64,000 bases of DNA from Obrimoposthia wandeli (Eukaryota), in the NCBI GenBank assembly GCA_977020255.1, contig CDROCS010004773.1:1-64000 (forward strand). Direction: 5' to 3'. The translations under genes and the position numbers were made by a program. Below are positions 340-62,912 of this stretch, piece after piece. Position 1 is the first letter of the stretch; each line of letters starts with the position of its first letter. The notes beneath the pieces are model-generated. The model saw nothing but the letters and a program-made list of their open reading frames with translations. It was not told where the DNA came from and did not search any database.

Positions 340-1440
340 GCGATTCCGTGGAATAGTTCAAGATATTGAGAATAAGTTTCAAAATTAAATAGAATAAGTT
401 CAGATAAGTTTCAGACAATTGAGAATAAGTTTGGGTAAATAAAGAATAGAGATTGATGTCAGAATAAGTTTACAGATATTAAGAATAAGTTTCAGATATT
501 GAAGACAAGTTTCAAGATAAATTAAGAATAAGTTTCAGATAAATTGAGAATCGTTTGTAGAAGAATATAGACGAGTGAATAAGTTTCAGAAGGAAGATAT
601 AAACAAATTTCACAGAATAGTTTCAGAAGAAGATGCAAGTAAATTGAGATGAAATTGGTAGTGTTGAGAAATCAGTAGATTTGTTCCTCGAAGTTAAAGA
701 ATTTGATAAGAGGTGTTGAGAAATCAAGTAGATTTGTTCTAAAGTTAAGAATTCTGATGATGTTGAGAAATCGAGTAGATTGTTCCGCCGAGTTAAGAAT
801 TTGATGAGGTGTTGAGAAATCGAGTAGATTTGTTCCTCGAAGTTAAGAATTTGATGATGTTGAGAAATCGAGTAGATTTGTTCCTCAATTAAGAATTTGA
901 TAAGGGTGTTGAGAAATCAGTGATTTGTTCCTCAAGTTAATTTAGTAAGTGTTGAGAAATCGAGTAGATTTGTTCCTCGAAGTTAAGAATTTGATAAGTG
1001 TTGAGAAATCAGAATTTGTTCCTCAGAAGTTAAGAATTTGATGATGGTGAAAATCGGTAGATTTGTTCCTCGAAGTTAAGAATTTGATAGAGTGTTGAGA
1101 AATCAAGTCGTTTGTTCCTCGGAAGTTCTAAAAAATTTGATAAGTGTTTGAAATCGGTAGATTTGTTCCTCAAGTTAGAATTTATTGAAATGTTGAGAAA
1201 TCAAGTAGATTTGTTCTCGAAGTTAAAATTTTGATAAAGATATTTGAAATCAGTGCGATTTGTTCCTCGAAAGTTAAGACATCAGTGTTGAGAAAATCAA
1301 ATGGTGTTCCTCGAAGTTAAGAATTTGATACTAAGTGTTGAGAAATCGAAGACTAGATTTGTTCTCAGTTAAGAATTTGATAAGTTTTGAGAAAGTCGAG
1401 TGGATTTGTTCCTCAAAAAGAATTCAGTAAATTCTATAAG
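340..1440 (+). repeat. 5' leader tandem arrays (~20-bp unit, then ~49-bp unit), degenerate
   Basis: Noisy copies of gagaataagtttcagatatt and gaatttgataagtgttgagaaatcgagtagatttgttcctcgaagttaa. Clean versions at 62913-63960. Confidence 0.85.
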
Positions 1441-5499: not shown

Positions 5500-7433
5500 A
5501 CAATCAACCCAAATATAATCACAACAATGATGATGATGAGTGTTAGTAATGTTCATGGGAATGCAACAGGCATCAGGATTGATAGCACTTTTAGCAGCAT
5601 ACCAAAGAAGATGGGACAAAAGTATTCACTGCTTGACAGCGAAGACTGCCATCCAGAATCACAACCGTCAAAATTAGAAGTTCAAGGTGTTGAAAACTTC
5701 TTTTGTATTATCAGGATGTTGGCCATAAAGTACAAGTAGAAGTGAAAGAATATGTTTCAATCCATTCAAGTTATCACGGAATTCTATTGTGGCCATAGAA
5801 GTTTTATGTCGGAAATCACACTACCACACCGTACAAAGCACATAAGGTTTTGCCGAGAGATTGCAAAGGCATTTCGAACGGGAACGATAGAAGTGAACAA
5901 GAATTACAAACCTGAAGTAAAATTGGGAGTGAGACGATACGAAACAGTCGAGAGTCAGTTAACCGATGGAGCTAGATGGATCTTGTGACGGAGAAACAAA
6001 AAACGTGCGTGGGACCAAAGTATCTGAGATAGTAAAGGATAAAACTTACAAAATCGAATTAAAAACTTGGACCGCCAATTTTGATAAAAGACACAACTAA
6101 TGATGAAGTATCCAGAATGTAAAATGACAATACATCTTGTTTTACGAGCGAATCCACAATTGTCATGAAGTGAATCGAAGCAATGCTCTTAGTATTTTGA
6201 AAGAGATTAATAGTTTAATAAAATAAAGGATTCCTGTATAATAGAGATGGAGAAGGGTTCTGTATAATAAAGTTGGAAAAGGATTGCTAAATGAAACAAG
6301 ACCAATTCCAATGACAAAGACACTTTTCTACACTGTTAATGGCAACATCAATAGAAGAAAGGATTGATATTTATTAAAAAAGAAAACAAAGCGCGATGCC
6401 AGGAATGCTATTTTATGCCTATCCAGGAATAGTTTTGTCCAAAGAAGCAATAGCACTTGGCAGAAACCAAGCTAGGCAAACCAAAAAATGCAGCTACACA
6501 CGTATTTTAATAATAAAATTGATTTCTATTATCATAAAGGATTGATGCAAATGGAACAGATTATATCGGATGATGATCGAAAGAGATTGCCAGCTAAACA
6601 AGAGATCGTAAGAACAAAGTTAGCATTAGCTATTACGAATCAGACATGGTAGCACCATTATTACCCTTGGATGAAGGAGTATTTGCTAAAACCATGGGAG
6701 AAGTATTGTATACTTACAAGTGTAATAAAGTAGAGGTACAGTTGAGAAAAACAGATCGATGTACGAGTGAATTGGCAGTAACGTATAATTTAAAAGATCT
6801 TTTTTGTTGAACCAATCACGAGAATGTTACTTCAAAAGACACTCAACTAAAGAAATCAGCTGCTCTAATATAATGGCACCTGAATATCAGATGACGAATG
6901 ATCTATGGATAACGTTACCTGATCGGAAGCCAACGAAACCCAGCATGATAAGAATGACGAATCTTAAGGTAAATGAAATTCAAGCAGCGGTGTGAAAATA
7001 TGGAGAACGCAGGATTGTACAATGAAAAGATTTAAAAGCGGCGTGGAACGAAATAATGTTTCCAGTAAGAAGAGCCAGAGTACTTACGGAGATGGTACAT
7101 CGAAACGCATTACCGCCAGGAGCTGGATATGCGAATTTCGATATGTTATTATCGCCAAGTCATTTCAAGGAAGCAGCATCAAGGCACTTAGAAAATGTGG
7201 AAATTCTTGTTTTTGGACAATTATTTTCGGGTATCATAGGTATATATATTATAATTAAATTTGTGCAGGTAATTATGGCCCAGGTGTTGTCTACGTATAG
7301 TTTATACAGGATAACAGGAATCACCCATGCAACTTATAATTGGATGTTTTCCATTTTATATCTAATGCACTATCATCACGAGAACGAGTTGCGAGCCCTC
7401 AAGAAGGAACAACACAAACGAGAACCATGGTGA
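5500..7433 (+). pseudogene. env: Env-like fusion glycoprotein resembling chuvirus-type G (frameshifted as read)
   Basis: Fragments SLLDSEDC, EFYCGHRS, LLPLDEGVFAKTMGEVLYTYKCNKVEVQLRKTDRCTSELAVTY, EPITRML..C..MAPEY..W, then a C-terminal hydrophobic block FGQLFSGIIGIYIIIKFVQVI. Family assignment is from motif recall, not a search. Confidence 0.7.
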
Positions 7434-7759
7434 TGCGAGAACCAAGAAACTATCTGAGACGACAACGACGACGATAATGATAGTCCAGGAGTATATGCAA
7501 AGATACCAGGAAAACCAAAGATTCGTTACCAGACAAGGAAGAAGTGGCGTTAAACCTATCCCATCAATGAAGGAACTAAGGAGGAGGAGAAGGAAAGAAG
7601 TTCAAGAGAGGAAAAGCATCGCAATACATAAAGATGATAGGAGAAGGCCTAAAAGAGTGAGCTACAGTGAAATTCCACAAGCAAGAGGAAAAAGACAAAA
7701 AAGATAATTCCAGAAGAATTCTGAAGTCTAGGATATCAAATGAGAATCAGGTAATGCTC

Positions 7760-8085
7760 CACCACAAGTAGCAGTAACATTGAACGGAAGAGAATACCTT
7801 GCCGAAGTTGATACCGGATCTGCAGTATCAGTACTGAGTAAAGAAATCTTCTCATCAAAAGAATTAAGAAGTATGTCTAGAAAACAGACATTTGTTAACG
7901 TGAATGGTACAGATGTAGTGTCGGAAGGAACACTGAAATGTTCATTGAATATCGATGGAAGAAACATTGCAGTTAAATGCTAGAATATTCACAGATTGCG
8001 GAAGTCAGTCATGATTGGGATGGACGTAATACGAATGTTTGAAGGAATAATTATACTACCAAACAACAAGAGTTATAAAGAATGA
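7760..8085 (+). pseudogene. Retropepsin-like aspartic protease 1
   Basis: VTLNGREYLAEVDTGSAVSVL...VNVNG. After one in-frame TAG (7981-7983) the frame continues NIHRLRKSVMIGMDVI (xIGxD motif). Confidence 0.8.
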
Positions 8086-8259
8086 CAGTTCAAAGTGAGA
8101 GAGATAAAAATGTTGAGAGGACCCATAGTCGAAAAAGGAAAAATGCACTACGTTCCGTATGGGAGGTTCAATACCCAGACAGAAAACAGGAAGCGCTAGT
8201 AAAGTCGATACTTCACTACAAAAATGTAAATTTCGGACCACAAGCTACGACGAGGAGAA

Positions 8260-9320
8260 AATAACATATGTGAATTTGTCAGAAAAAGATCCCATGAGAT
8301 TCGAGAGAAAGAGACGAAATATATTAGAACAGTACTATTCAAAGGAATGGCACGTAAAATGGCAAGATCAGGTTTAGAAATGTTAAACGCGACAAGTAGT
8401 TATGGTCATGAGGAAGTAGTACGATGCGTATGGTGTAGAGTAAAGTTCAGAGAATGGGAAAAGAATGAAAAAGCAATGAGACGTCATAAAAGAGATGCAC
8501 CAAATTGTCCATTTCTTTTGAAACTGAAAACGTCAAACGTACCAGAAATCCAAACAGGGAAAAGCACCCGATTTCGATTACAGTGACAGGGATTCCAAAG
8601 GAGAATCAGCTCTAATAACAGGAAGAGTAATAACGAATAGTCAATTGAAGATATATTCGAAGTTATGCGAGAAGTGAACGAATGTGACGAACAATATCGA
8701 GAAGTAACTTTCGAAGATCCAAGACTTAAAAAAATTGGCAAAAAGGGACTTTTTGCTATAAAAAAGGATGGTAAAGACGTAATTAAATGCCACAAGTGTA
8801 AAAAAGAACGAATTATCGACAGATATACTCTTGAGCTACCTAAATTTTACATCATGAATTTTTGCGAATTTTGTACTTTTTAAAAACAAAATAAAGCAAA
8901 AAAGAACAGAAAACAGAATGTATAATCGAATACCAAAATCACACGAAAAGAGATTTTGGCTCAACAAGACACACCGGTAGTGTCATTCGTGAGAAAAGGT
9001 TATATCCAAAAGAAGCAGAAAGAATCAGAGAATTGGTAGAATTAAAAAATAAAAACTACGCGAAACGGATACGGATCGATTTTTGAATTACTGCGAGATA
9101 AAGATGACAGTACAATTGAAACAAAAGAGAAGAGTACATAAATGAATTAGAATACGTACTAGAAAAGATCCGGAATGCGCAGTTTGCATGGTCAACAAAA
9201 TAGAAGTTGCCTTTCTACCATGCGGACATGTAAGAACATGTCGGAGATGTGCGAAATGAAATGGTATCATGTCCAATTTGTCGAAGAATAATAGATCGAC
9301 AAGTGAGAAACATTAGATTT
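8260..9320 (+). pseudogene. Inhibitor of apoptosis (BIR + degenerate BIR + C3HC4 RING)
   Basis: ORF 8347-8586 has the canonical BIR spacing C-x2-C-x16-H-x6-C (CVWC...H KRDAPN C). 8665-8883 has R.VTF...GLF..D.IKCHKC. 9175-9290 gives CAVCMVNKIEVAFLPCGHVRTCRRCA//CPICRRII. Confidence 0.85.
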
Positions 9321-9384
9321 CACTATCCAAACAAAGGGAAGTGGACTGACAGAGTGTAATAATTCGATAAATACAATATACCAT

Positions 9385-10176
9385 ATGGGAAACATAAATG
9401 GAGCACAGCGACCAGCAGCTATCATTAGAGTAAATAATTTAAGAGTAAAAGCCTTAATTGATACAGGTGCTGTAGCTTCGATAGTAAGTGAAGACTGTTT
9501 GACAGAGGAACAGAAACGAACAATGGCAGAACCAGATGAATTCTTGGTATCGGTCAATGGAGACCCTGTAAAAGTGACGGGAATATTACCATGTACATTT
9601 ATAATTGGACGTAATACGATCACTATACCAGTTAGAATCATGAAAGAATGTCCTGAACCTACAATTTTAGGAATGGATGTATTATCACAACTCAAAGGGA
9701 TAAGTATTGATTTACAAGATCCAAGATTGAAGGATAGCACATCAAACAGACAAATAAACCAAATTGATGTAATTATAGAGAATCCTATAAAAATCGGTAA
9801 AAGATCACAATTTCTCATTCAAGGTCACACATTATCAGAAGATAAAGGACCAGTTGTGTTCGAACCATCACGAGATTTCATAGAGAAATACGAATTACCA
9901 GTTGTGAGTACAGTATGCCTGATCGAAAACCACAAAATACCAGTTAGACTGATGAATACAACCAACAATGACATCCTATTATACAGAGGAATGAGGTTGG
10001 GAAAGATAGTACAAATGGAGAATCCCACCGTGTGTGCTATGAAACTCGATAAAGATACGAATGATTACGAAGAAATAGTAATCCAATCAGAAAGACTGAC
10101 AACTAGAGAAAAGAAACAATTACTTGATCTAATACATAAATTTCCGAAAGTAATTGCAAAAATCCATATGACATAG
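9385..10176 (+). CDS. pol: Pol N-terminus: retropepsin 2 plus spacer
   Basis: ALIDTGAVASIV and PTILGMDVL motifs. Confidence 0.9.
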   Translation: MGNINGAQRPAAIIRVNNLRVKALIDTGAVASIVSEDCLTEEQKRTMAEPDEFLVSVNGDPVKVTGILPCTFIIGRNTITIPVRIMKECPEPTILGMDVLSQLKGISIDLQDPRLKDSTSNRQINQIDVIIENPIKIGKRSQFLIQGHTLSEDKGPVVFEPSRDFIEKYELPVVSTVCLIENHKIPVRLMNTTNNDILLYRGMRLGKIVQMENPTVCAMKLDKDTNDYEEIVIQSERLTTREKKQLLDLIHKFPKVIAKIHMT

Positions 10177-10199
10177 GAGAAACACCTGTCATAAAACAT

Positions 10200-10970
10200 A
10201 CAATACCACTGACAGAAGACAAAGTAGTCAGAAGAAGACCATATCGAGTACCATTACAATTACAAGATGAAGTAAAAGTCAGATCGAAGATATGTCTAAA
10301 ACAGAGTAATTAGACCGAGTTTTCGCCATTCTCAGCACCTGTGGTGTTGGTAAAAAAGAAGGATGGGAAAATGAGATTCTGTATAGATTTCAGAGAACTG
10401 AACAAGATCACAAGAAAAGATGTGTATCCATTACTAGAATCGAAGAGATGCTCGATAAATTGGGTAATTCAGATTATTTACGACATTGGATTTGCAGAGT
10501 GGATACTGGCAAATCGAGATAGAGGAAGAGGATAAACACAAAACAGCCTTTTCCTGCGGAGATGGATTGTACGAATGCGAAAAGATGCCATTCGGACTGA
10601 CAGGAGCTCCAGCAACATTTCAGCGTTGCATGAATTTTGTACTCGCATCGTGTGCAAACACGATGGTTTATATTGATGACATAATAATATTTTCGAAAAC
10701 GTTCGAAGAACATTTAAAAAATCTTGAAGTTGTATTTAAAAAAGACTGGAAAACGCTAAATTAAAAGTTAAACCTACAAAATGCGAATGGGCTAAAGAGC
10801 GAGTAACATTTTTAGGACATATAGTATCGAAAGAAGGCATTCGACCTGATCCAGCAAAGATCGAGAAGTAAAAGCATTTAGCGCCAAAGACTGTTAAGGA
10901 GATACAGAGTTTTTGAGGTCTTGCGAATTATTATAGACGATTTGTTGAACATTTTTCAGATATAGCAACA
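10200..10970 (+). pseudogene. pol: Reverse transcriptase (frameshifted as read)
   Basis: [55 protein letters not shown]. Confidence 0.95.
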
Positions 10971-10973
10971 CCA

Positions 10974-11711
10974 TTGAGAAAGTTGACGAGAAAAGATGAG
11001 AAGTTCATATGGGGAGAAGAAGCCCAACAAGCGTTCGAGCATTTAAAAGAAAGACTGATAAAAGCACCAATATTAGCGTTTCCAGATATAAACCGACAAT
11101 TCATACTCATGACAGATGCAAGTAACTATGCTGTAGGAGCAGTATTGGGACAAGAGGATGACGAAGGAAGAGAACACGTCATCGCGTATGCGAGTAGAGG
11201 ATTAAACAGAGCCGAAAGAGGATACTCTGTTATCGAAAAGGAATGTCTAGCCATAGTGTATTCATGTAGACAGTACAGACACTACTTGCTAGGACAAAAA
11301 GTATTCCTATATACAGATCACAAACCACTACAGTTCTTGTATAAACATAGAGATGAGATGAGTAGATTAAACAGATGGTTCCTAAAATTAGCCGAATTCG
11401 ATCTAGAAATCCGTTATAGAACCGGAAAGTCGAACGGCAACGCAGATTGTTTATCGAGATTGACAAATGTAGACGAAAAAGGAAACATAATTCCAGAAGA
11501 AGATGAAACCAATGACCAAAAAGGAGAAGCAAATCTACTGACGATTTTGCTAAAGACGGGTAAAATAGACAAAGAGATCATCAAAGAACAGAAAGAAGAT
11601 GAAGAACTGAGTCTAATCAAAGAATTGTTGGTGAAAGGAGATCTAAACGATGAAATGACGAAAAAATACTCGATAAAAGAAGGAATCTTGTATATAATGT
11701 CGGAAAGATAG
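10974..11711 (+). CDS. pol: RT connection + Ty3/Gypsy RNase H
   Basis: LMTDASNYAVGAVL, YSVIEKECLAIV, YTDHKPL, NGNADCLSR. Confidence 0.95.
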   Translation: MRKLTRKDEKFIWGEEAQQAFEHLKERLIKAPILAFPDINRQFILMTDASNYAVGAVLGQEDDEGREHVIAYASRGLNRAERGYSVIEKECLAIVYSCRQYRHYLLGQKVFLYTDHKPLQFLYKHRDEMSRLNRWFLKLAEFDLEIRYRTGKSNGNADCLSRLTNVDEKGNIIPEEDETNDQKGEANLLTILLKTGKIDKEIIKEQKEDEELSLIKELLVKGDLNDEMTKKYSIKEGILYIMSER

Positions 11712-11731
11712 TAGTAGTAATTCCGAAGTCA

Positions 11732-13264
11732 TTGAAAACAGCAGTGATGATCCAGTATCACGACGGAACACTAGGAGGACATCTGTCAGGGCGAAAGACA
11801 ATAGCCAGAATCAAAGAGAAGTACCATTGGGATGGTATGGAAGACGACATAAAACAATGGTGTAAACAATGTAAAGTATGTTTAACCAGAAAAGACACCG
11901 GAACTCGTACTAAAGTTCCACTGAAACCAATGCCAGTTCCCTTGGCACCAATGGAATTCACAGCGATGGATATATTGGGACCATTGAGAGAATCAAGTAA
12001 AGGAAACAAGTACGTCATAGTATTTACGGATTACATGACGAGATGGGTAGAAGCATATCCCATGCAGAACCAGAAAGCTGAAACAATAGCGCAAATCTTA
12101 GTGGAAGAGATAATATTTCGATACGGAGTGCCCAGAAAGTTATTAACGGATCAAGGTAAGAACTTCACTGGAGAAGTCATAAAAGCAGTATCGAAGATAT
12201 TCGGAATCATGAAGTTACAAACTTCACCATATCACCCACAGACAGATGGTCTGGTAGAAAGGTTTAATAAAACTTTATGTATGATGGTACAATCCTATTG
12301 CTCAGACAAGCAAGAGGATTGGGATAAATATTTACCTTCATGTCTATATGCTTACAGGAATTCAGTTCGAGAGGCGACGGGTCACACACCATTCTATCTG
12401 ATGTATCTCAGACAGAACAATATGCCGATGGATCTGGAGTGGACCGAGCCAACATCTCAGTATCTAGAAACTGAACAATACATTGTCGTCATGAAGGAAA
12501 GATTACAAGATGCTTGGACCAAAGCCGGATTGAAGTTGAAATTCAATCAAGAAGGTTACAAGGAACAATACGACAAAAAAGCAAAACCACATGAATTTAG
12601 AGTCGGAGATCAAGTGATGATATTTTATCCAGTCATCGAACCAGGTCTATCGTTTAAACTTCATAGACCATACAAAGGACCATACAAGGTGATCCAGACA
12701 ACTTCAACAAATTTGAAAGTAATCAACGAAGAGAATCGGAACAAGGAACCGATGATTGTACATGCAAATCGATGCAAATTAGTACCAAATAAAGATAATG
12801 CGTCACGATATGAGTTAAGATCACAGAAATCGAAATCGAATACCAATACCATTAAACTTACACGAATGGTAAGTGATCGGAACTACATAAACATGATGAC
12901 GAGTGGTAGCGAGGAAAAACCAGCAAGAATTGGTATGCTCAGAATGAAGTACCAAGAGGAAAAGGAAGTAATCCGACACATCGCACCACAAGAGATATTA
13001 GAAGAAGACGAAGAGATAATAGTCGTTTTCGAAAAAACACAACCAACAGATGTAGCTAAAGAAGTCATTGTGAAAGATGCACTAACAAACGAATTTCTGT
13101 GCGAACTTAGAGTGTCATACTATGACGGGAATACACTAGTCGCAGCGCTTTATCAAAATTCCAATGTGTTTACGACTGAGAAAGTGATAATCGAAATCAC
13201 ATTGACACCAAACATAGTTGCATGGCAGAACTATGACAGTACTGAAGCAGGACTAGCCAGTTAG
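11732..13264 (+). CDS. pol: Integrase (HHCC, DDE core, GPY) with C-terminal extension
   Basis: YHDGTLGGH...CKQC, AMDILGPL, LLTDQGKNF, TDGLVERFN, PYKGPYKV. Confidence 0.95.
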   Translation: MKTAVMIQYHDGTLGGHLSGRKTIARIKEKYHWDGMEDDIKQWCKQCKVCLTRKDTGTRTKVPLKPMPVPLAPMEFTAMDILGPLRESSKGNKYVIVFTDYMTRWVEAYPMQNQKAETIAQILVEEIIFRYGVPRKLLTDQGKNFTGEVIKAVSKIFGIMKLQTSPYHPQTDGLVERFNKTLCMMVQSYCSDKQEDWDKYLPSCLYAYRNSVREATGHTPFYLMYLRQNNMPMDLEWTEPTSQYLETEQYIVVMKERLQDAWTKAGLKLKFNQEGYKEQYDKKAKPHEFRVGDQVMIFYPVIEPGLSFKLHRPYKGPYKVIQTTSTNLKVINEENRNKEPMIVHANRCKLVPNKDNASRYELRSQKSKSNTNTIKLTRMVSDRNYINMMTSGSEEKPARIGMLRMKYQEEKEVIRHIAPQEILEEDEEIIVVFEKTQPTDVAKEVIVKDALTNEFLCELRVSYYDGNTLVAALYQNSNVFTTEKVIIEITLTPNIVAWQNYDSTEAGLAS

Positions 13265-13342
13265 GAAGAGAAGGAACCGGCCGGTGGTCACATACTGCAT
13301 GGTACACCAAAAAGACTCAAACAAGAATACCACGATGTAATA

Positions 13343-15211
13343 ATGGTATTACGTAATTCACATGGGAAAAGAGATATCATGAGAGTCCATTTAATCGACG
13401 CTGACACTGAAAAGATAATTTGTCAGATGGACACCAAATACTTTGATGGAAAGACAATTGTATGTTGTATACCAGAATCTCACCGGTTAGACACAGATCA
13501 AACGGAAGTATCTGTAAGGTTGAGCGTAATAGAAGGATTTCATTCGCTAAACCATCCGGAAGTGACTAACAATAAAATCATCAAAGCAACGGCAGAGTTA
13601 CGCATTGACAGCGGATACCGGAAGTGGGAAGCTAAAAATAAAAAACCACAAAGAATCAATATGATCCGAGAACAAGTGACCAACTCAATCCAGCCAAAAT
13701 ATCATGCTGAAATAGTATCATCCGCGCCAAGTGTAATTACATCGATAAACGACGAAATTATAATTTTACTAAAAAATCGATGGCCGTCATCAACTGAGAT
13801 ACGAGTAAACTTAATTAATTATGCGAAGACACCGATATCTAAGCTGAATGTTACCTATTTCGATGGATTGTCCATCATGGGTAAATTAGAAACAATTGTC
13901 ATGTGCTATGGAGCACAGTTCCAAGTTGAGATACTTAAAGACAGTGTAATACCGTATCCAATTCACAAATACGAAGGGGAAATCAATCCAATTATTCTAA
14001 CCCCTTCATTAATTTCAGTTCAGACAGACATACCAGAATACCCTTCGAGCGAGTCTAGTGAAGACAGCGAACCGGAAAGTAACGATACAGAATCAACAGA
14101 ATCCGAAGATAACATAATAGAGCGATTCGGAAGAACCATGGAGGTTGAATTCGCTAAAGAGAACAGAAAAAGACAAAACATAGAATTCGTGAAACAGAAT
14201 ATACAAGAAAGACGAATTAAATCTGCAGAAGAGACCGAGTCGGAAGAAGACTCAACAAAGGAACAGACATCAGAGACAAAGATGAATATCTCTCCAGCAA
14301 TACGAATGCTGAGAGGAAAGAAACTGGCAAAACTATCTAACATCGACGAACAGATAGAGAAGAGATTAGAAAGACTAAAACTTGAAGAGTCAGAATTAAT
14401 GCCACCAATGAGTGAGATCATTCCAGGTAAGTTATACCTCGGAAATGTGGAGGATGCAACAGATGAAAAGAAACTGTTGGAACAAGGGATAACATACGTG
14501 ATCAACGTTACAATGAATCACAAATCACAATATCAGACGATCAGAGCCATGACATTAAGAGTAAAAGACTCAATGGATGCTAATCTTCTCGAATGGTTCG
14601 TAGAAACAAACGAAATACTTCACAGAGAACTCCGGAACCAAGGAAAAGTGTTGGTACATTGTCAGAAAGGAATTTCTCGATCAGCAACTCTAGTATTAGC
14701 ATACCTAATAAAGACTAGACGAATGCAGGTACTAGAAGCGCTAAAATACCTACAGGAGAGAAGAAGTATTGCAAACCCAAATCTTAATTTTTTGGGACAG
14801 TTGGCAAATTACCAACTTCTGTTGCAAGAACAAAGACGGATGGACGACATTCCTGAGGATCCAAAGGAAAAGAATTTCCTCCAAGCATTATCATTGACCG
14901 GGTTATTCTTAGCCGGAGTCGACAAAATTACACAGATAATGCCAAAGGTATTTTTATGTCATCCAGGAGATATAGATACTGCTGGATTAAAGTTCCACAG
15001 TATCAACCGAGTAATCAACATTGTTGAAGTCGGAAACGAAATAATCAGTCTGTGTCAAAATACTGAAGATGACACCACTCGATACATACACGCTTCCAAT
15101 CGAGAAATAAACGATGCACAACAACATCTGACGAAATTGACTCAAACCATCCAAGCTGAAGTCACAGAAGGAAACGGCGTTCTGATATATCAGAAAAAGG
15201 TACGATGTTAG
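13343..15211 (+). CDS. Accessory polyprotein: repeated ~90-aa domains, acidic linker, dual-specificity phosphatase, start of a pseudophosphatase
   Basis: SEIIPGKLYLGN...GITYVINVT...VLVHCQKGISRSATLVLAYL...PNLNFLGQL (CX5R intact, Cys at 14660). A second DUSP-like unit starts ITQIMPKVFL. Same frame as the integrase ORF, separated by one TAG. Confidence 0.9.
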   Translation: MVLRNSHGKRDIMRVHLIDADTEKIICQMDTKYFDGKTIVCCIPESHRLDTDQTEVSVRLSVIEGFHSLNHPEVTNNKIIKATAELRIDSGYRKWEAKNKKPQRINMIREQVTNSIQPKYHAEIVSSAPSVITSINDEIIILLKNRWPSSTEIRVNLINYAKTPISKLNVTYFDGLSIMGKLETIVMCYGAQFQVEILKDSVIPYPIHKYEGEINPIILTPSLISVQTDIPEYPSSESSEDSEPESNDTESTESEDNIIERFGRTMEVEFAKENRKRQNIEFVKQNIQERRIKSAEETESEEDSTKEQTSETKMNISPAIRMLRGKKLAKLSNIDEQIEKRLERLKLEESELMPPMSEIIPGKLYLGNVEDATDEKKLLEQGITYVINVTMNHKSQYQTIRAMTLRVKDSMDANLLEWFVETNEILHRELRNQGKVLVHCQKGISRSATLVLAYLIKTRRMQVLEALKYLQERRSIANPNLNFLGQLANYQLLLQEQRRMDDIPEDPKEKNFLQALSLTGLFLAGVDKITQIMPKVFLCHPGDIDTAGLKFHSINRVINIVEVGNEIISLCQNTEDDTTRYIHASNREINDAQQHLTKLTQTIQAEVTEGNGVLIYQKKVRC

Positions 15212-18080: not shown

Positions 18081-18203
18081 TGAGTCAGAGGAGGTTGTAG
18101 ATAAATTAGTGTGTGAAATATGTAGAAATATCTAGAAGCGATTGTACAAATAGTAGAAATATATAAAACTCATGTAGAAATTAATTCTCATCATGTATTT
18201 AGA

Positions 18204-18503
18204 ATGTCCGAAGAATGCCCAATATGTTTGGAAGATCTAACCGAACGAAGAACAAGACCCGAAACCTGCAACCATTTACACCACGAGGAATGTTTATCGA
18301 CATGGATCAGAACTTATGGACAGTTCGGACATCCAACATACCCTTGTTGCCCTGTATGCAGAAGACAATTCGCAAGATTCATCATGTTAGAACCCAACCA
18401 AGAGGATGTATATGTACAGGTGGTATTCTGTTGGAAGAATTTCGGAGAGTGTTGGTGTTATTACTGTTTGTCAGAACGACAAAATCCGACCACTTTTGTG
18501 TAA
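18204..18503 (+). CDS. RING-H2 protein 1
   Basis: CPIC...CNHLHHEEC...W...CPVCR. Confidence 0.85.
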   Translation: MSEECPICLEDLTERRTRPETCNHLHHEECLSTWIRTYGQFGHPTYPCCPVCRRQFARFIMLEPNQEDVYVQVVFCWKNFGECWCYYCLSERQNPTTFV

Positions 18504-18563
18504 ACATCACACAACCACCAGTCCTCAATCGAGCCCAAATTCAACATCAACCCTCTCACAGTA

Positions 18564-18869
18564 ATGTCTGGAGAATGTTCCATCTGCTACGAGAGCATCG
18601 TGGACTTCTACACCAAGCCCAACAACTGCGACCACCTCTTCCACGTCGAATGCCTCGAGACGTGGATCCCCATCGCAAACAGCAACAATCCCCTCGACTT
18701 CCCAACCTGCCCGATGTGCAGAGCGACCTTCTCAGTACACTACGTGTACAACCAGGACAGCCTCCAAGCAGTGATACCCATCGTACACTGCTGGAAAACC
18801 ATCTGCGATTGCTGGTGCTCGTTCTGCGTGGAGGAGCGAAGCACAGGCCAGCCCAATTCCCAACAATAA
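18564..18869 (+). CDS. RING-H2 protein 2
   Basis: CSIC...CDHLFHVECLETW...CPMCR. Confidence 0.85.
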   Translation: MSGECSICYESIVDFYTKPNNCDHLFHVECLETWIPIANSNNPLDFPTCPMCRATFSVHYVYNQDSLQAVIPIVHCWKTICDCWCSFCVEERSTGQPNSQQ

Positions 18870-19208
18870 TCGAAGGTAACTTTCTGACTTGAACGTGACA
18901 TCATGAACTACCCTGTGTATCGCATACCGCGATAAATTAGCTACCATAATTGTAATCATAATTATATAATCTTGTGAACTGTAAATTGACCATTACCATT
19001 TTTATGTATGATGTTTAACTGAAATTGTAATTATTATACTGAAATTCTAAAAAGACAATTTTTATGCTTAGTGTGAATGCGTAAACATGCCTAAAATCGG
19101 AACAAAACTCGGTAGGATTAAATAACTAAGGATTCGTTTTGAAATAAAATTTAAATTAACGATGAGAACGGTGAACCCCAAATTGAAAGGAGTTATTTTC
19201 TTGTGCAG

Positions 19209-19739
19209 ATGAAGTGTTCTGTATGCATGGAGAAAATTTGGGCGGCATCAGCATCCCCTGTCGGCTGCTGTCACAAATTTCACGAGGCGTGCCTCTATTT
19301 GTGGGCCAAGGCTCGACCCCCTGGCCAAATCACGTGCCCACTGTGCCGGACACCCTTTGGCAAATGGACGCTCCAGTGCCGTGGACGATCCAAGGGCACC
19401 CGATCACCTGCCAGCTGCATTGGTGGCATACACTGCCAGTGCTACGTGTGTCTCGCACGCCGGCGCGACACACAATTGGGCATCCGCGAGCGATGGCGGT
19501 CTAGCCGTGACTGCCATTCATGGTTCCAGGCCAGACGTCTATGGATGGAGAACCATGCGCTGAACGGGCAATATTTCGACCTGTTTGTCGAGAGCCCACA
19601 CCTAACCCGGAGCCAGCAACTACACCTCTACAACGGGGACAGTCCGTCCTTTCCCGATCTACCCCTGGAGCAGGTCCTGCGTTACCTGACCAGTCGGAAT
19701 CAGCCGACAATTACAATCGATCTAACTAACGACAATTGA
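19209..19739 (+). CDS. RING-H2 protein 3 with C-terminal SIM-like motif
   Basis: ATG at 19209. CSVC...CCHKFHEACLYLW...CPLCR, ending TITIDLTNDN. The C-terminal half is conserved in copy B. Confidence 0.88.
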   Translation: MKCSVCMEKIWAASASPVGCCHKFHEACLYLWAKARPPGQITCPLCRTPFGKWTLQCRGRSKGTRSPASCIGGIHCQCYVCLARRRDTQLGIRERWRSSRDCHSWFQARRLWMENHALNGQYFDLFVESPHLTRSQQLHLYNGDSPSFPDLPLEQVLRYLTSRNQPTITIDLTNDN

Positions 19740-20564
19740 TAACGTTAAATCCTTTCCTCCCTTCTTTCCTTCCTAATTCTTAATTTATTCATGTAGATTT
19801 TTTTGTGTATAAGTAATAATGTATGGTTTGAGACTTGCTCCAAATTATACATTATGATTCCCACTAAAAACTGGGGTTTTGAGAATTTTTTTTTGGGCAT
19901 GTTTGATGAGTTGAATGATTGATTTTGTAGGGATGAACCTAAAATCAACAGCCAGAGGCTTGTATAAGTAAAATCGATACGTTCCGGGGACGTAACTTTT
20001 TTGGAACCCCCGAGGTATGTTAGGTTTGAGAATTAAGAAATTAAAATATTTTAGTCGATTAAATACTAAAATAAAAATCCTTGAAAGCAAGGTTGAAAAT
20101 TAAATTAAATATTAATTTTAGATTCAAAATTGAAATTAGTGGAAGTTAGGGTAAAAATTAGGAGGACCACGAAGGTCGTGTATAGTGTAAGATATATATA
20201 AGTTAAATTAATTAACCCAAAAGTGCAACAAAACACATTAATAAAAGAAAAAGGAAACGTCAATTAAAGAACGTCAATTAAGGTAAGCACATTTTCGTGC
20301 AGTGAGTTAAAATTAATTTTCAGCTGTTCAATATTGCTGAATTCCTATAAGCCGGAAGAGCAGGAACACTCAAGAGTTGATTGACAACTCATAGCGAATA
20401 TAAAAGAGTCGCTGACGAAGTGAACACAAACCAGAACGAAAATTAGCTAGGAATCAATATCACCTGAAGTCTACGGAGCGGAATCTTGGTAAGTAGGAAT
20501 TTGGGTTGCATTTATAATCAATAATTTAGATTGCCGCATATAACTGATTAGAAGAAGCTAATTG

Positions 20565-21140
20565 TCAGTTTTAAAAGGAATAATCATCAATTGCCAGTTT
20601 AAAAGGAATAATCATCAATTGCCAGTTTAAAAGGAATAATCATCAATTTCCAGTTTAAAAGGAATAATCGTAAGTTGCCAGTTTTAAAGAATAATCGTTT
20701 ATTGTCAGTTTAAAAGGAATAATCGTAAATTTCCAGTTTTAAAGAATAATCGTTTATTGTCAGTTTAAAAAGAATAATCGTAAATTTCCAGTTTTAAAGA
20801 ATAATCGTTTATTGTCAGTTTAAAAAGAATAATCGTAAATTGCCAGTTTTAAAGAATAATCGTAAATTGACAGTTTTTAAAGAATAATCGTTTATTGTCA
20901 GTTTAAAAGGAATAATCGTAAATTGACAGTTTTTAAAGAATAATCGTTTATTGTCAGTTTAAAAGGAATAATCATCAATTGCCAGTTTAAAAGGAATAAT
21001 CGTAAATTGACAGTTTTTAAAGAATAATCGTTTATTGTCAGTTTAAAAGGAATAATCATAAATTGCCAGTTTTAAAGAATAATCGTTTATTTTCAGTTTA
21101 AAAAGAATAATCGTCAATTGCCAGTTTTAAAAGAATAATC
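20565..21140 (+). repeat. LTR-A minisatellite, ~28-bp unit
   Basis: gtttaaaaggaataatcatcaattgcca and variants. Confidence 0.9.
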
Positions 21141-21260
21141 GCCTATCGATAAACCTTCGAAGACGATCACACCAGTTCGTCAGAACTACATACGGATCCA
21201 GTACCGGATTGACGCAGTCGCAGCTAGTCGCAGCATATCGGTAAGAACACCGACTAGAGC

Positions 21261-21695
21261 ATTCATTGCCCCTAGTTGGCAATTAGGATACATTCATTAC
21301 CCCTTGTTGGTAATTCGAAATTTTAACATATTAACCAGATTCATTGTCCCTAGCTGACAATTAGGATTGCTGTCTCTTTAACCAAATCATTGTCCCTAGT
21401 TGGCAATTAGGATTGTCCATTTTATTCATTGTCCCCAGCGACAATTAGGAATTGTACCAGTTTTTCCCGTAAGATTCATTGTCCCTAGCTGACAATTCGG
21501 TTCACTCATTGTCCCTAGTTGACAATTCGGAACAAATACTCATTGTCCCTAGTTGACAATTCGGTCCACTCATTGTCCCTAGTTGACAATTCGAACCAAC
21601 ACTCATTGTCCTAGTTGACAATTCGGAGTAAGTTTTCATTGTCATCGTTGACAATTAGGTTTTTAGGAGAATCATTGTTCACAGTGGACAATTCG
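21261..21695 (+). repeat. LTR-A array of 12 palindromic ~27-nt cores with variable spacers
   Basis: tcATTGTCcctagytGACAATt(a/c)gg x12, counted by eye. Confidence 0.9.
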
Positions 21696-22249
21696 TGGTT
21701 AATATACAACAGATAGAGTTACGGATTCAAGAAGCTTTATCCACACATAAGAAGTAGAATCGAAGAAATTTAAGAGAGTTGCGTTATAGATTAACCAACC
21801 TAAGAAGAAGAATAACCCTAAAATCTCGATCACCCGAACGTAAAATCGATACGTGGTTCATCCCCACTTCTTGTAGAGACTTACAGAAGTCTTAGGAATT
21901 TTACCATACTTTTTAGAAATACGTACATAAACGTATTGTTGTGTTAGTTACGTGAATTACAAATAAACAATTTCCTACAGTAGAACAAGTTGTTTTTGCA
22001 CCCTTCAGAATAAGAGACATCAAATCAAATACCTTCAGATAGTACAAGAGATTAGGCAACCATAACACTAAGTAGGCCACGACCAACTTTAAGACCTGCT
22101 TCTAATCGAACTCACGTTGGGGCCCTCCGCACATAAGAGGATCTGTACCAAGTTTCGTAATGAAACCCCAACAGCTTAAATATTATTTTTTAGTTTGCCA
22201 AAAGACAAATATGACTCCAAAACAGTTTTCGCGGATAACTTAGCTGTTG

Positions 22250-42304: not shown

Positions 42305-42520
42305 TTTAGCCAAATGAGATGGAGCAATAACAGGTCTGTGATGCCCTTAGATGTCCGGGGCCGCACGCGCGCTACAATGGCAGTATCAGCGAGTATTCAA
42401 TCCTAGCTAGAAATGGCCGGGTAACCTGCTGAAACACTGTCGTATCAGGAATTGTGGATTGCAATTTTTCCACATGAACGAGGAATCCCTAGTAAGTGCA
42501 AGTCATTAGCTTGCGCTGAT

Positions 42521-42565
<45 letters not shown>
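42305..42565 (+). rRNA. 18S rRNA fragment (non-functional)
   Basis: GAGCAATAACAGGTCTGTGATGCCCTTAGATGTCCGGGGCCGCACGCGCGCTACAATG...GTACACACCGCCCGTCGCTACTACCGATT. The variable positions resemble platyhelminth 18S from recall. Confidence 0.95.
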
Positions 42566-42572
42566 TACTAGC

Positions 42573-42769
42573 AGTGTGTAATAACTGACCTACCGAATCT
42601 ACTAGCCCTGAAAATGGATGGCGCTGTAGCGAAGAACCTATACTGGATCGATACCGCAAGCCCTGTGGAGAAAGTGGTATCGTGTAGGAGGGTGCCGTGG
42701 TTGCATTGAAGCTACTGGCGTAAGTCAGAGTGGAGCGGCCACGGGTACAGATCTTGGTAGTAGTAGCAA
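42573..42769 (+). rRNA. 28S rRNA fragment (non-functional, divergent)
   Basis: AGTGTGTAATAACT..CCGAATC.ACTAGCCCTGAAAATGGATGGCGCT...CAGATCTTGGTAGTAGTAGCAA. Confidence 0.92.
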
Positions 42770-44511
42770 CCGGATTGCTCGCTAAAGAAAATATGGGCAA
42801 ATCCAAATTTCAGCGGCGCGGAAATTCAAGTCATCTTCGTCAAGCCCCGGTTACCCTCCGCGATGGTTAACCGTCAGTCACCCGGCGCGAGACGCCTCTC
42901 AAATGAACCCCCTACCTGGAAAAGACACAGTCCAATTCTCGCCTCGGCAAACTTATGCTATGGATTCTCACCTGGCAAACTTATGCTAAGGTCCGAAATA
43001 AAACTGAACTTCTCTCTGTTCAAATTCTCTTCTTTTTTTAAGCAGTGAAGATTAGCAGCAACACGCCGTACGGCAAGAGACCCCCTCACCTTTAGGCCCC
43101 CACCTGCGTACCATAGCCATCGCCCAGCGTGGCGGGTGAGCTGCACATATTCATACAGTCGGCAGAAGTAATAACGCAAAGGGGTTTACCGGAAATATCT
43201 CAAACCTATACTTCCCCATTGCTTTTACCCTTGTAGAACCACCCGGCTCCGGTGTTCCGCACCGTGGCGCTAACATCGCGGGGGTCTCTTCTTAGCATCG
43301 AATCTACCTCTTATTCCAGTGTTACGACGATCTCGACGATGTCCTTCGAATCCAGTGCATTTTTGATGTAACCGAACCATCGAGCTTGTACCCGCAAAAC
43401 ATCTTGCTGTGGCGATCTTAATTTCCGCTAGCGAGACGCCCAGTTGCCTTAGAATATCATAACTCTCAATCAACCAGTTTCCTCGCCATGTAATCGAGAC
43501 CGCTTGCGAGACAAACTTCAAAGTCTTTTCAACTAACGAATCTTTCTCATTTGGACTTACGTCTGTAGCTAATGTCTCGTTTCCAGTGACCTGCCCTAGT
43601 GGGATAACATCAATCACTTTCGTTTCCACGACTTTTCCAAGGCCGACCAAAGCCTTATCTCGAACTTCACTTGCGTCACCTCCACTAACGGTGCCCTCGT
43701 TAGTTTCATTGGCCTTCGTTGTCTTTGCCGAACCCTTGAGAGTTGTATTCAAACGTACTGTATTTTCACTATCGCTGAAATGGGGTCTCGAGAGACACCA
43801 ATCTTTGATACATTTCGTGTTATACTTTTGACGTTTTGCCTCGTGAGCCTTATCCACGTCGATCTCCTTTGCATCACTGCAAACTTGAAAGTCGATAACA
43901 AGGGCACCTTTACCTCTTTCGAGTAGTACCAGATCAGGCTTACGTACACCATCTATCGTATTGATAGAAGGTTCCACAATAACTTTCATTTGGGGATTTC
44001 GGATTCGAATTCTGTCGGTGAGATACTTCGCGATGTTGTCGTGACGTTTAACCCTAGCTCCATGGACTCTAGGGCACCCCTGGGAGATGTGTGATAGCGA
44101 ATGGATACCATTTAAACACTTGTCACAATCAATTTTAGTTCGAGGACGACCACGACTTTGTCTAGCCTTCGTAGAGACGAGATTCCCCCGGATTTTAATG
44201 TAGTTGATGTAGTGGTAGGAATTCAGGAAGCGAGTTCCATCATCCACCCAGCTATGTGCCGCTTTACAATCCGCCGCACCCATCAACCCCTTGCCATCCA
44301 ACGTTGAATATAATTCTTCTCTAATCATGTCTAAGCCATCACTTGTAGTCGTAACTATATTGCCATTGAATAAGATCCCATCAATGATGGGGGCCAGTTC
44401 CTTGCGGATTAACTTACCTTCGGCCAGTTCCCGAATACGCGCGTCTTCCGAGTCTGATAATTTCATTAGCCGCGCACGTCGTGCAACAGAGAGAATGAGT
44501 TCCAAAATCAA
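42770..44511 (-). mobile_element. 5'-truncated R2/R4/NeSL-type non-LTR retrotransposon (CCHC + restriction-like endonuclease + 3' UTR)
   Basis: ORF 43270-44511: CDKC...SLSHISQGC, RHDNIA, EP...RKPDLV..VIDFQV..K.QKY..SITWRGNW. The RT domain is missing. Confidence 0.9.
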
Positions 44512-46696
44512 GGTCTAGCCGCGACTGCCATTCATGGTTCCAGGCCAGACGCTTATGGATGGAGAACCATGCGCTGAACGGGCAATATTTTGACCTATTT
44601 GTCGAGAGCCCGCACCTGACCCGGAGCCAGCAACTACACCTCTACAACGGGGACAGTCCGTCCTTTCCAGACCTACCCCTGGAGCAGGTCATGCGTTACC
44701 TAACTAGTCGGAACCAGCCGACAATTACAATCGATCTTACTAACGACAATTGATAACATTACATTCTTTCCTCCCTTCTTTCCTTCCTAATTCCTTACTT
44801 ATCTATGTAGCCATTTTGTGTATAAGTAATAAATTAGTGAATATTTGAGACTCTGTCCAAATGTTCACTTTTTTAGAAAAAACCGAGTTTCTTTTAAAAG
44901 TTTTGGGCATGTTTGATGAATTGAATGACTGATTTTGTAGGGATGGACCTAAAATCAACAGCCAGAGGCTTATAAGAGTAAAATCGATACGTTCCGGGGA
45001 CGTAACTTTTTTGGAACCCCCGAGATATGTTAGATTTAGGAATTGAGAAATTATTAAAAAATTAAATAATTTATACTAAAATAAAATCCTTGAAAGCAAG
45101 GTTGAAAATTAAATATTTAAAATTAAGTTAAAAAATTAGAGGATAAAATCAGGGATAAATATTAATAGGACCACGAAGGTCGTGTGTGATGTGTAGGTAT
45201 ATATAGAAATTTATATCTAACAAAAGGGACCAAAAAAGATATAGCTCTGAAAGTCATTGCAAGAAAAGAAGATTCTAAAATTAAGAGACAATTAAAGTAC
45301 AAGAAACCAAGCCCAAGGGAAAGCAGTCGTTGTGAGTCATTGTGACCTCAGTTTGATATCGATCCAGCAAACACAAATTACGGCAGAAGGTAGATTTGGT
45401 GAAAATATCTGAAATAAGACATTTCCCTAGGATTTGCTGAGAAGGCAATATCGATTTCTCGAACAAACACCTGGACCGCTCCACGGAACTGCCAAGAAGA
45501 CAATAGTGACCCGGCCTTAGTGGACTGCAGTCAAGTAGCGACAACAGGAAAGGTAAACCTATAAATACGGTTGTGAATCTAAAAACAAAAACCAACGGCA
45601 AAAATAATAATTAAATTCAATCCAGTGCAACTCAGTCGGTCGGAAAGCGACATTGTCCAGATTCCAAGTCAAGTTTCCAGTGACTTCGCCATTACAATTA
45701 TCTCAACTCAGTCGGTCGGAAAGTGACATTGTCCAGATTCCAAGTCAAGTTTCCAGTGACTTCACCATTACAAATATCCCGATCTCAGCAGCGGACGTCA
45801 TAAACAGCAGATTAAATAGGTGAGAACGCCGCGAAAAGAAGTAAAGTTGCGTTTTCGAATAATTTCCAAATAATTGTTATTGTTTTAGCAACAAGTAAAG
45901 TTGCGTTTTCAAGTAATTGTTTAGCAACAAGTAAGTTGCGTTTTCAAATAGTTTTCAAATAATTGTTATTGTTTTAGCAACAAGTAAGTTGCGTTTTCAA
46001 ATAGTTTTCAAAGAATTATTATTGTTTTAGCAACAAGTAAGTTGCGTTTTCAAATAGTTTGCAAATAATTGTTATTGTTTTAGCAACAAGTAAGTTGCGT
46101 TTTCAAATAGTTTTCAAATAATTGTTATTGTTTTAGCAACAAGTAAAGTTGCGTTTTCAAATAATTGTTTTAGCAACAAGTAAAAGTTGAGTTTTCAATA
46201 ACTGTCTTGCCTCATTTAGTAGAGTTTTATTATTGGTATAAAATTTCAATTTCCCTCTAAAAGTAAAAGTCTGACAGTAAGGTTAAATTGATTTGGAAGT
46301 ATATAACTTGAGTTTATTTGCGAGTTAGAGGAACAACTCTAAAAACTCGATCACCCTGAACATAAAATCGATACGTGGTTCATCCCCACTTGCGTAGAGA
46401 CTTACAGAAGTCTTAGGAAGTTTTACTATACTTTTTAGAAATACGTACGTAAACGTATTGTTGTGTTTTAGTTTCGTGAGTTACCAATAAACGATTTCCT
46501 ACATTAGAACACGTTGTTTTTGAACCCTTCAGATTAAGAGACGACAAACCAAACACCTTCAGAGAAGCAATAGAGATAGGCAAACATAACACTAAGTAGG
46601 CCACGACCAACTTTAAGACCTGCTTCTATTCGAACTCACGTTGGGGCCCTCCGTACATAAGAGGATCTGTACAAGTTTCGTATAGAAACCCCAACA
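44512..46696 (+). mobile_element. Copy B: 3' fragment of the Gypsy family (RING3 C-terminus, 3' UTR, LTR 45028-46696)
   Basis: 44512-45030 is homologous to 19499-20020. LTR TGTTAGA...CCCAACA, with a different interior. Confidence 0.92.
45840..46200 (+). repeat. LTR-B 53-bp minisatellite (plus a 76-bp duplication at 45628-45775)
   Basis: agcaacaag recurs at 45976, 46029 and 46082. Confidence 0.9.
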
Positions 46697-60341: not shown

Positions 60342-61254
60342 TGCATATACTCTTTCATTTTTAATATTGTTTATATTATCATAGAAGTTTTCTTATTGAA
60401 ATGTACAATGTTAGAGCGATTGTTGATGAAATACAAAAATTAATTAATGCATATTTGGCTATAATTTTATTTATTTATGTACGATTTCTAAATTCTCGAA
60501 TAACGTGTGATCTAACCAATATTTCAATGTTATCTCTTGTTATATCATTATTTTTTAATTCTGATAAAATTTCTTTACCCCTGATTTTTCCAGAAAATAT
60601 TTCGTCGGCAAGACGATCCACTCCATTGTCTCTATTTATAGTATTGTTAGGATTGAGAATTAAGAAATTTAAATATTTTAGTCGATTAAATACTAAAATA
60701 AAAATCCTTGAAAGCAAGGTTGAAAATTAAATTAAAATATTAATTTTAGTTTTAGAATTAAAATTAGTGGAATTTAGGGTAAAAATTAGGAGGACCACGA
60801 AGGTCGTGTATTATGCGAAAATGTATAAAAGTTAAATTAATTAACCCAAAAGGGACAATTTAGAAGTAATTAAGAAAAAACGGTTAATTAAAAACGTCAA
60901 TCAAGAGACGTCAAGGTAAGCACATTGTAAGTGCAATAAGATTTATTGATTTTAGATATCAATCAAGAAACCATTCCCAACGTTATTCTCAGCTGTCCAT
61001 TGAGTGACAGATCCCCGTTCTCAGCAGTAAGCACATTTGTAAGTGAAGTGAGTTTAGTCCAATTTTCAGACTATAAGATCAGCTGTCATTGATTGACAGG
61101 ACTGCCCCTATATAAGGCAGAGTAAACTACAGAGGAAACAACAACGAAATCGACTACGAGAAATCAACTGGGCGGAGGACCAAGGTGAATTTTGGTGGTT
61201 TGGGTCAGTGTTAAAGTAATTTGTTTTTAGATCAATTGAATTAATTGAAAGTCC

Positions 61255-61800
61255 AAAAAGTCAAAATATATCTAAGTTAAAGTATATTCAAGTCAACGTA
61301 TATCCAAGTCAAAGTATATCCAAGTCAAAGTATATCCGAGTTAAAATATATCTAAGTTAAAGTATATTCAAGTCAACGTATATCCAGTCAACGTATATCC
61401 AAGTCAAAGTATATCCAAGTCAAAGTATATCCGAGTTAAAATATATTTAAGTTAAAGTATATTCAAGTCAACGTATATCCAGTCAAAATATATCTAAGTT
61501 AAAGTATATTCAAGTCAACGTATATCAAGTCAACGTATATCCAAGTCAAAGTATATCCAAGTCAAAGTATATCCAAGTCAAAATATATCTAAGTTAAAGT
61601 ATATTCAAGTCAACGTATATCCAGTCAAAATATATCTAAGTCAAAGTATATTCAAGCCAACGTATATCCAAGTCAAAGTATATCCAAGTCAAAGTATATC
61701 CGAGTCAAAATATATCTAAGTTAAAGTATATTCAAGTCAACGTATATCCAAGTCAAAGTATATCCAAGTCAAAATATATTCAAGTCAAAGTGTACTCAAG
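61255..61800 (+). repeat. LTR-C 16-bp minisatellite
   Basis: ccaagtcaaagtatat units with higher-order variants. Confidence 0.9.
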
Positions 61801-61940
61801 CGTCCAAAGAGTCAAGTCCAAGCGTATTCAAACGAAATCAAACCTCACACCAGGGATAATCTTCAGATTCCGAAAGACCTACGGATCCGCATCGGAAGTC
61901 CCACTAGTTGCCGTAACTGGTAAGAACACCCACTAAACTA

Positions 61941-62378
61941 TTCATTGCCCCTAGTTGGCAATTAGGATACTGTCATTACCCCTTGTTGGTAATTCTAAAT
62001 TTTAAACTAATACACAGATTCATTGCCCCTAGCCGGCAATTAGGACAATCCGACTCTTTAACAAAATCATTGCCCCTAGTTGGTAATTAAGATCTGACAT
62101 TTATTCATTGTCCCCAGCGACAATTAGGAATCCTACCCAGACGCTTTACCCGTAAGATTCATTGTCCCTAGCTGACAATTAGGTTCATTCATTGTCCCTA
62201 GTTGACAATTCGGATAAATACTCATTGTCCCTAGTAGACAATTCGGTAAGACTCATTGTCCCTAGCTGACAATTCGGTTCGCTCATTGTCCATAGTTGAC
62301 AATTAGGAGTAAGTTTTTCATTGTCATCTTGACAATTAGGTTTTTAGGAAACCCATTGTTTACAGTAGACAATTCGGG
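61941..62378 (+). repeat. LTR-C 12-copy palindromic array
   Basis: Collinear with 21261-21695. Confidence 0.9.
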
Positions 62379-62865
62379 TCAAACACACACAGATAGATTT
62401 AAGGAACCAAGAAACTTTATCTAGAGATAAGAAGTAGGAGCGAAGAAATTTAAGAGAGTTGCGTTATAGATTAACCAACCTGAGTAAGAAGACTAAACCT
62501 AAAAAACTTAATCACCTGAACGTAAAATCGATACGTGGTTCATCCCCACTTCTTGTAGAGACTTACAGAAGTCCTTTAGGAATTTTATCATACTTTTTAG
62601 AAATACGTACATAAACGTATTGTTGTGTTAGTTACGTGAATTACGAATAAACAATTTCCTACATTAGAACAAGTTGTTTTTACACCCTTCAGACTAAGAG
62701 ACATCAAATCAAATACCTTCAGATAGTACAAGAGATTAGGCAACCATAAAACTAAGTAGGCCACGACCAACTTTAAGACCTGCTTCTAATCGAACTCACA
62801 TTGGGGCCCTCCGCACTCAAGAGGCTCTATACCAAGTTTCGTATAGAAACCCCAACATATTAAAG

Positions 62866-62884: not shown

Positions 62885-62912
62885 AGCTCGTCGGACACAG
62901 CGAATTCACGTA

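Follow-up and report, generated by a model that had tools for sequence, protein, structure and literature searches.

RING3, a small open reading frame at the 3' end of a giant Gypsy element (element A), is by its sequence a real accessory gene under selection, and at least 150 near-identical copies of it were found in the genome. It exists in two deeply diverged versions of roughly equal frequency, one with a SIM-like C-terminal tail (SIM+) and one lacking it (SIM-); their backbones are near-identical, and recent insertions include both. We give about even chances to the reading that RING3 is a ubiquitin ligase which removes a host defence protein and in which the TIDLT of the tail would act as an optional SUMO hook, comparable to that of VZV ORF61. 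The features considered here are listed in the table below; the window is the whole stretch of DNA analysed, 64,000 nucleotides in length.

Table. Positions of element A, its 3' genes and the second RING3 copy in the window.
Feature	Position	Strand	Remarks
Body of element A	7026..15211	+	Monjiviricetes-type fusion glycoprotein, BIR, protease, RT/RNase H, integrase, dual-specificity phosphatase
RING1	18204..18503	+	RING3 paralogue; RING-H2 and Cys cluster, no helical domain, no SIM
RING2	18564..18869	+	RING3 paralogue; RING-H2 and Cys cluster, no helical domain, no SIM
Predicted splice donor AAG/GTAAC	18872..18881	+	cut after AAG; 6 nt past RING2 stop; at least 48/60 copies
Predicted splice acceptor	19195..19208	+	pyrimidine tract and CAG abutting RING3 ATG
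RING3 ORF (copy A)	19209..19739	+	176 aa and stop
RING-H2 domain	19215..19349	+	Pfam zf-RING_2, E=1e-6; RING fold in model
Second Cys/His cluster, C70...H75-C-x-C-x-x-C81	19416..19451	+	common to RING1 and RING2
Four-helix domain, aa 82-164	19452..19700	+	RING3-specific; AF2 mean pLDDT 78.7
SIM-like core T-I-D-L-T, aa 169-173	19713..19727	+	stop three residues downstream; in half of family
Conserved motif just before 3' LTR	19976..19996	+	sampling anchor
3' LTR of element A (TG...CA)	20018..22173	+	hypervariable interior, 28-bp tandem array
Copy B	44512..46696	+	5'-truncated; RING3 codons 98-176 (44514-44753), 3' UTR, 3' LTR (from 45028)

Element A starts before the window and ends at 22173, and its body is broken by stops and frameshifts in this copy. 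The ORFs of other natural copies gave the domain order gag-CCHC, env, PR, BIR, RING, PR, RT, RH, IN, DSP for an element of ~24 kb, after which come the three small 3' RING-H2 genes. On its sequence the element is a Burro-like, envelope-bearing Gypsy, as it displays the PR-RT-RH-IN order, an env-like domain upstream of the protease, and a BIR. Planarian Burro (GYPSM1) has been described as a giant Gypsy-like element having env between gag and pol (PMC6431247); in the descriptions available to us the likeness comprises the giant size, an env-like fusion glycoprotein between gag and protease, a BIR and RING cargo, and thousands of copies. The element studied here differs from Burro in its size of ~24 kb and in that the ORFs scanned had no Pfam matches to MATH, ankyrin, BCL2 or SUMO-like domains at E<=0.01; its additional modules, namely a dual-specificity phosphatase and the three stand-alone 3' RING genes, find no mention in the partial Burro descriptions compared. 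Two aspartic-protease domains flank the BIR-RING module (L170:3-3203, window 7700-10176), and the DSP domains come after the integrase.

The RING-H2 domain of RING3 contains the residues C3, C6, C20, H22, H25, C28, C43 and C46 together with W32, P44 and R47, each one conserved in 53-54 of 54 open frames; we take W32, P44 and R47 to be E2-contact and linchpin residues. The second Cys/His cluster is likely a further zinc site. Alignment of RING3 with RING2 by hhalign gave 97.8% over 82 columns, and from sequence and predicted model RING3 appears to be a RING2 paralogue across its first 89 residues that has gained the four-helix domain and the tail. This helical domain is basic, Trp-rich and the most allele-variable part of RING3 (49-98% identity among copies); it is predicted to be a substrate-binding module, and a search for its family yielded no significant match. 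An F-box reading of LPLEQVLRYL was discarded, having Pfam E values of 0.05-0.1 in 6 of 40 members, one helix only, and a Pro that is not invariant. Outside this genome no RING3 homologues were obtained from the single protein (8 candidates) or from the alignment (222 candidates). A phmmer search of 1.84 billion representatives returned 102 matches, mostly via the RING, the top one (P0001) being a repeat artefact; in the ESM Atlas RING3 matched generic clusters of small viral RINGs, and aa 51-176 matched nothing.

Copy B is 5'-truncated and has no RING, thus its comparison with copy A covers residues 98-176 only. Over these 79 codons (A 19500-19736, B 44514-44750) we recounted 13 synonymous and 1 nonsynonymous (L/M) changes, in agreement with the initial annotation; given 56 synonymous and 181 nonsynonymous sites, the silent excess has p = 8e-8 under neutrality and 4e-6 with a transition bias of 8, and simple arithmetic from the site counts sets dN/dS at ~0.02. 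The two LTRs align near their ends only, as had also been noted; as almost every copy has an LTR interior of its own (37 clusters among 40 copies), unalignable interiors are no sign of age. Moreover, dN/dS over residues 1-165 was 0.12-0.36 in 20 of 20 pairs, and no credible pairwise value above 1 was seen in any region, the single value of 1.25 representing 5 changes. The purifying selection claimed at the outset therefore holds for RING3 but does not count as evidence for the SIM, because SIM-less copies, which retain the RING residues, are equally constrained (dN/dS 0.13-0.20 in six pairs among them).

Similarity searches gave close copies only, with IDLT in 57 of 60 loci and IDLS, IYLT and IDLI once each; therefore we sampled copies by the conserved 3' motif. 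This 21-nt motif has 6,197 matches with at most one mismatch in the 1.35-Gb assembly (0 for the reversed control), and the sample, which covers families with this motif and places more diverged motifs outside, comprises 90 of the first 100 exact matches in contig order, after removing one already in the set, one at a contig end and the last eight. A RING3 match was present in 89 of the 90 loci and a frame open for at least 160 aa in 56, two of which were dropped for frameshifted tails (n=54). Twenty-seven of these frames are 176-179 aa long and terminate three residues after [IV]DLT, 22 measure 161-165 aa and 5 measure 170 aa; the SIM share is thus 27/54 (95% interval 36-64%), SIM+ being assigned by the motif itself and every un-frameshifted long frame having it. 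When any frame was accepted and broken or truncated loci were counted, the tail was found in 40 of 90 loci and was absent from 50. The initial annotation had made its reading depend on conservation of the SIM in more distant subfamilies, and this came out half and half: 27 of the 54 open frames carry it and 27 do not, so the SIM is not a property of the whole RING3 family. In the SIM-less copies the last helix runs to the stop with no motif, and no substitute SIM-like motif was detected in SIM-less RING3 outside that last, amphipathic helix.

Where the tail is present, its core is strongly constrained. The ORF ends in TITIDLTNDN, one residue longer than the TITIDLTND first quoted. In residue shuffles [VI]DLT appeared in 288 of 100,000 anywhere and in 33 of 100,000 within the last 20 residues; it is found in 0 of 101 unrelated RING proteins, and the long ORFs of two complete elements contain it a single time. 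Each of the 27 long frames keeps D, L and T, although these are written with 2, 5 and 3 codons, while flanking positions vary among 3-5 residues, and the motif is retained across a 3-residue upstream insertion and in lineages that stand at dS 0.9-2 relative to copy A. Such a core, invariant through synonymous codons, across an insertion and in diverged lineages, indicates that the constraint on the SIM acts on the protein. The predicted model places the tail in coil, outside the helices. Motif patterns of CtBP, PDZ and HP1 were also compared; CtBP calls for P or G two positions ahead of D, and the variants fit none of the three. Assignment to the [VI]-D-L-T SIM class stands for the core but not for the strict high-affinity class, V/I/L/F/Y-V/I-D-L-T, which as given in the accessible part of PMC3991395 requires a hydrophobic first residue: this position is T in 26 of 27 SIM copies and I in 1. 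Modelling of residues 137-176 together with a stand-in SUMO, which is 79% identical to the host SUMO exon, gave a score of 0.43, the best control reaching 0.01; this is a weak hint of binding, with runs sharing at least 58% of contacts and a partner pLDDT of at least 52. Among 78 solved complexes 51 pass the mark applied, as do 2 of the 108 mismatched pairs, but scores of 0.60 or less account for only 5 of the 78 and for all 4 mismatches that passed; SIM-SUMO is moreover a textbook pair type, which may pass simply because the predictor has seen it before.

LTR pairs were located for 8 of 12 SIM- elements (91-99.7% identical, four of them at least 99.3%) and for 7 of 8 SIM+ elements (87-99.3%), so both versions have been recently mobile; as the SIM-less pairs reach 99.7%, the hook is dispensable, unless it is supplied in trans. 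Among 37 aligned copies, the majority of the 165-aa SIM- ones match copy A at 95-100% through RING1, RING2 and the intron, and several do so at 93-95% in the first 180 bp of the LTR; all of them are only 61-65% identical to it in RING3 codons 51-165. The median dS between SIM+ and 165-aa copies (342 pairs) is 0.155 in RING2 versus 1.06 in RING3, and 42 pairs have a RING2 dS <0.05 while their RING3 dS is 0.69-1.30; indels in five of the RING2 rows inflate the extreme values. At the level of these alignments the divergence forms an island with sharp borders at RING3, a new observation. Since its versions lie about 1 dS apart on 95-100% identical backbones, RING3 behaves as a swappable cassette, and a high dS together with dN/dS <1 argues for old alleles that have persisted and been traded through recombination, not for fast protein evolution. 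A single SIM-less clade was rejected (p-AU 0.016) on a tree built without outgroup and with evident recombination; once copy L076 is removed, the SIM-less copies fall on one side of a branch, with weak support. The more diverged backbones bear SIM or 170-aa tails, not the 165-aa form.

The CAG before the RING3 start is present in 80 of the 89 copies with a match and in 56 of 56 open frames. Together with the predicted donor it would delimit a 333-nt intron, whose predicted removal would set the RING3 ATG in frame two codons past the RING2 stop. Each of RING1, RING2 and RING3 has an AG 0-2 nt before its ATG, and RING1 and RING2 share one reading frame, interrupted by a conserved TAA (window 18197-19211). 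Spliced-leader trans-splicing is known in flatworms, and either this or alternative cis-splicing could resolve the three-gene cassette.

In the reading that we prefer, expression of RING3 would rely on a subgenomic RNA spliced at the conserved acceptor that precedes its ATG, the RING, whose anatomy is intact, would recruit a host E2, and the variable four-helix domain, found in all alleles, would pick the substrate. The SIM+ tail may add avidity for a SUMOylated substrate or for SUMO-rich nuclear sites, the target being most plausibly SUMO-scaffolded silencing complexes, and the SIM+ and SIM- versions would be swapped by recombination and both kept by conflict with the host. A more specific version, in which the ligase dismantles SUMO-scaffolded piRNA silencing complexes and its balanced, swappable alleles reflect an ongoing arms race, is possible but somewhat doubtful; as no credible pairwise dN/dS exceeds 1, the arms race is deduced from deep allele divergence only. 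KAP1-type silencing, invoked in the initial annotation, is vertebrate-specific, and the host here looks like a flatworm: a SUMO exon from its genome has flatworm SUMOs as its nearest matches (3 matches, two of them named). SUMO links Piwi to H3K9 methylation in Drosophila according to the accessible text of PMC8490990, and in planarians Burro elements are kept down by nuclear PIWI, with accompanying changes in H3K9me3, according to that of PMC8532177; our literature search, based on partial texts, found no report of a SUMO role in flatworm silencing.

Of the alternatives, RING3 could be a SUMO-independent ligase whose helical domain alone picks the substrate (e.g. apoptosis, stress or immune signalling proteins) and whose DLT tail has a different role, in binding another partner, in localisation or in stability. 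We hold this to be unlikely, yet it agrees with several results: the SIM-less alleles are equally conserved and recently mobile, the tail-SUMO prediction is weak, and the neighbouring cargo (BIR-RING, phosphatase) is related to apoptosis and signalling, the Burro1 BIR-RING having been reported, in a second-hand mention seen in part, as anti-apoptotic (PMC13465017). Against it, the constrained residues are exactly [IV]-D-L-T, C-terminal and outside the helices, and the CtBP, PDZ and HP1 motifs do not fit. It is improbable that RING3 is a general, RNF4-like poly-SUMO STUbL on which the element depends for stripping silencing complexes; this would account for the RING and SIM occurring together and for the selected core in SIM+ lineages, but RING3 has one SIM where RNF4, RNF111 and Dgrn have several in tandem, and half of the family is without it, with no replacement apart from the amphipathic helix. 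The initial statement that RING plus SIM defines STUbLs, with RNF4 as an example, thus does not carry over, as the RNF4 type has several SIMs: RING3 is not a poly-SIM STUbL of this kind. What remains of the STUbL reading is the RING-H2 anatomy, the selection on DLT and the ORF61 analogue.

The helical domain might instead be a lambda-repressor-like DNA reader taking the ligase to the LTR of its own element in the manner of VANC, for which we see an equally small probability. The domain is basic and allele-variable, and in a structure search with the isolated domain the top 9 matches were all of POU-specific, CUT, XRE or MuB type, the best having Z 5.1 and an rmsd of 3.0 A over 63 residues; Z values of 5.1 or less are, however, in a range common in small helical bundles, Foldseek returned no matches, and hhalign against host CUT and POU profiles, which are shallow, gave 0.3% and 0.1%, so that the fold is a weak, model-derived lead only. 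Furthermore, LTR interiors do not follow the RING3 allele: copies that are near-identical in RING3 are unrelated in their interiors, one interior is common to a SIM+ and a SIM- copy, and no RING3-LTR co-evolution was seen among 40 copies. That RING3 is a passenger, conserved through DNA or RNA constraint or by chance, is hardly credible, as the differences lie in silent sites (p at most 4e-6), third positions in the DLT codons are free to change, and frame, start context and zinc ligands are retained across dS >1.

Returning to the proposed ligase with an optional hook, the closest known counterpart is VZV ORF61, with which SIM+ RING3 shares an N-terminal RING, a C-terminal TIDL, an origin in a genetic parasite and a predicted counter-defence role; by analogy it plausibly works like ORF61/ICP0. 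In the parts of PMC3161977 and 10.64898/2026.03.11.710994 available, the C-terminal (L)TIDL of ORF61 is its strongest SIM (SIM-C), with a Kd of 15 uM, and its mutation costs ~60% of STUbL activity; ORF61 reads LTIDL and RING3 reads ITIDL in 20 of 27 SIM copies. As described there, ORF61 has 467 aa and three SIMs and targets PML bodies, whereas RING3 has 176 aa, a RING-H2, one SIM, an extra Cys cluster, the four-helix domain and a SIM-less allele, and no sequence homology joins the two beyond the RING. Cellular STUbLs use several SIMs (PMC8616421, in the text available): RNF4, RNF111 and Degringolade resemble RING3 in combining a RING with a DLT-type SIM, but their SIMs are several and in tandem and the RING of RNF4 is C-terminal and dimerising, so RING3 displays the reverse domain order from RNF4 and a single SIM. 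The VANCs of Arabidopsis VANDAL elements, in the accounts seen in part, are likewise accessory factors encoded by a transposable element (TE) against host silencing and associated with fast-changing non-coding tandem repeats; VANCs bind DNA sequence-specifically, whereas RING3 is a predicted RING ligase with no coupling of allele to repeat.

We found no report of a retrotransposon-encoded SUMO-targeted ligase in a literature search of partial texts whose scope lay outside the primary Burro papers, and TE-encoded anti-silencing proteins are established mainly from plant DNA transposons. If RING3 binds SUMO, a retrotransposon would have converged on the herpesvirus ICP0/ORF61 strategy, and, given the two versions, the hook would serve against host defences as an option, not as an essential part. 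SIM+ and SIM- alleles on near-identical backbones offer a natural comparison for the part of SUMO in TE silencing in flatworm stem cells, and such deep divergence between alleles of a single accessory gene is an uncommon indication of balancing-type conflict within a TE family.

Most LTR interiors have their own tandem array, with periods of 16-113 bp (window 20250-21200; L172-L211), and the 5' and 3' LTRs of one element match through the interior; this looks like very fast diversification of the promoter region. The 5' LTR and the start of a third family member occupy window 60645-64000, with a 49-bp tandem array also seen at window 660-1414. In window 42376-44511 an 18S rRNA fragment (Rfam) adjoins the 3' end of a minus-strand non-LTR ORF that abuts copy B; this ORF has zinc-knuckle and PD-(D/E)xK-like motifs by eye and no Pfam match, and the element is possibly an rDNA-targeted R element. 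Elsewhere in the genome, locus L164 (G000:C2592:107800-110800) contains ubiquitin-like tandem units with a 270-bp period and a stop codon between them, a similar spacing being seen on several other contigs, and a gag-like ORF (DUF1759, zinc knuckle) at L165:2379-4631, presumably of BEL/Pao type, carries an N-terminal ubiquitin domain.
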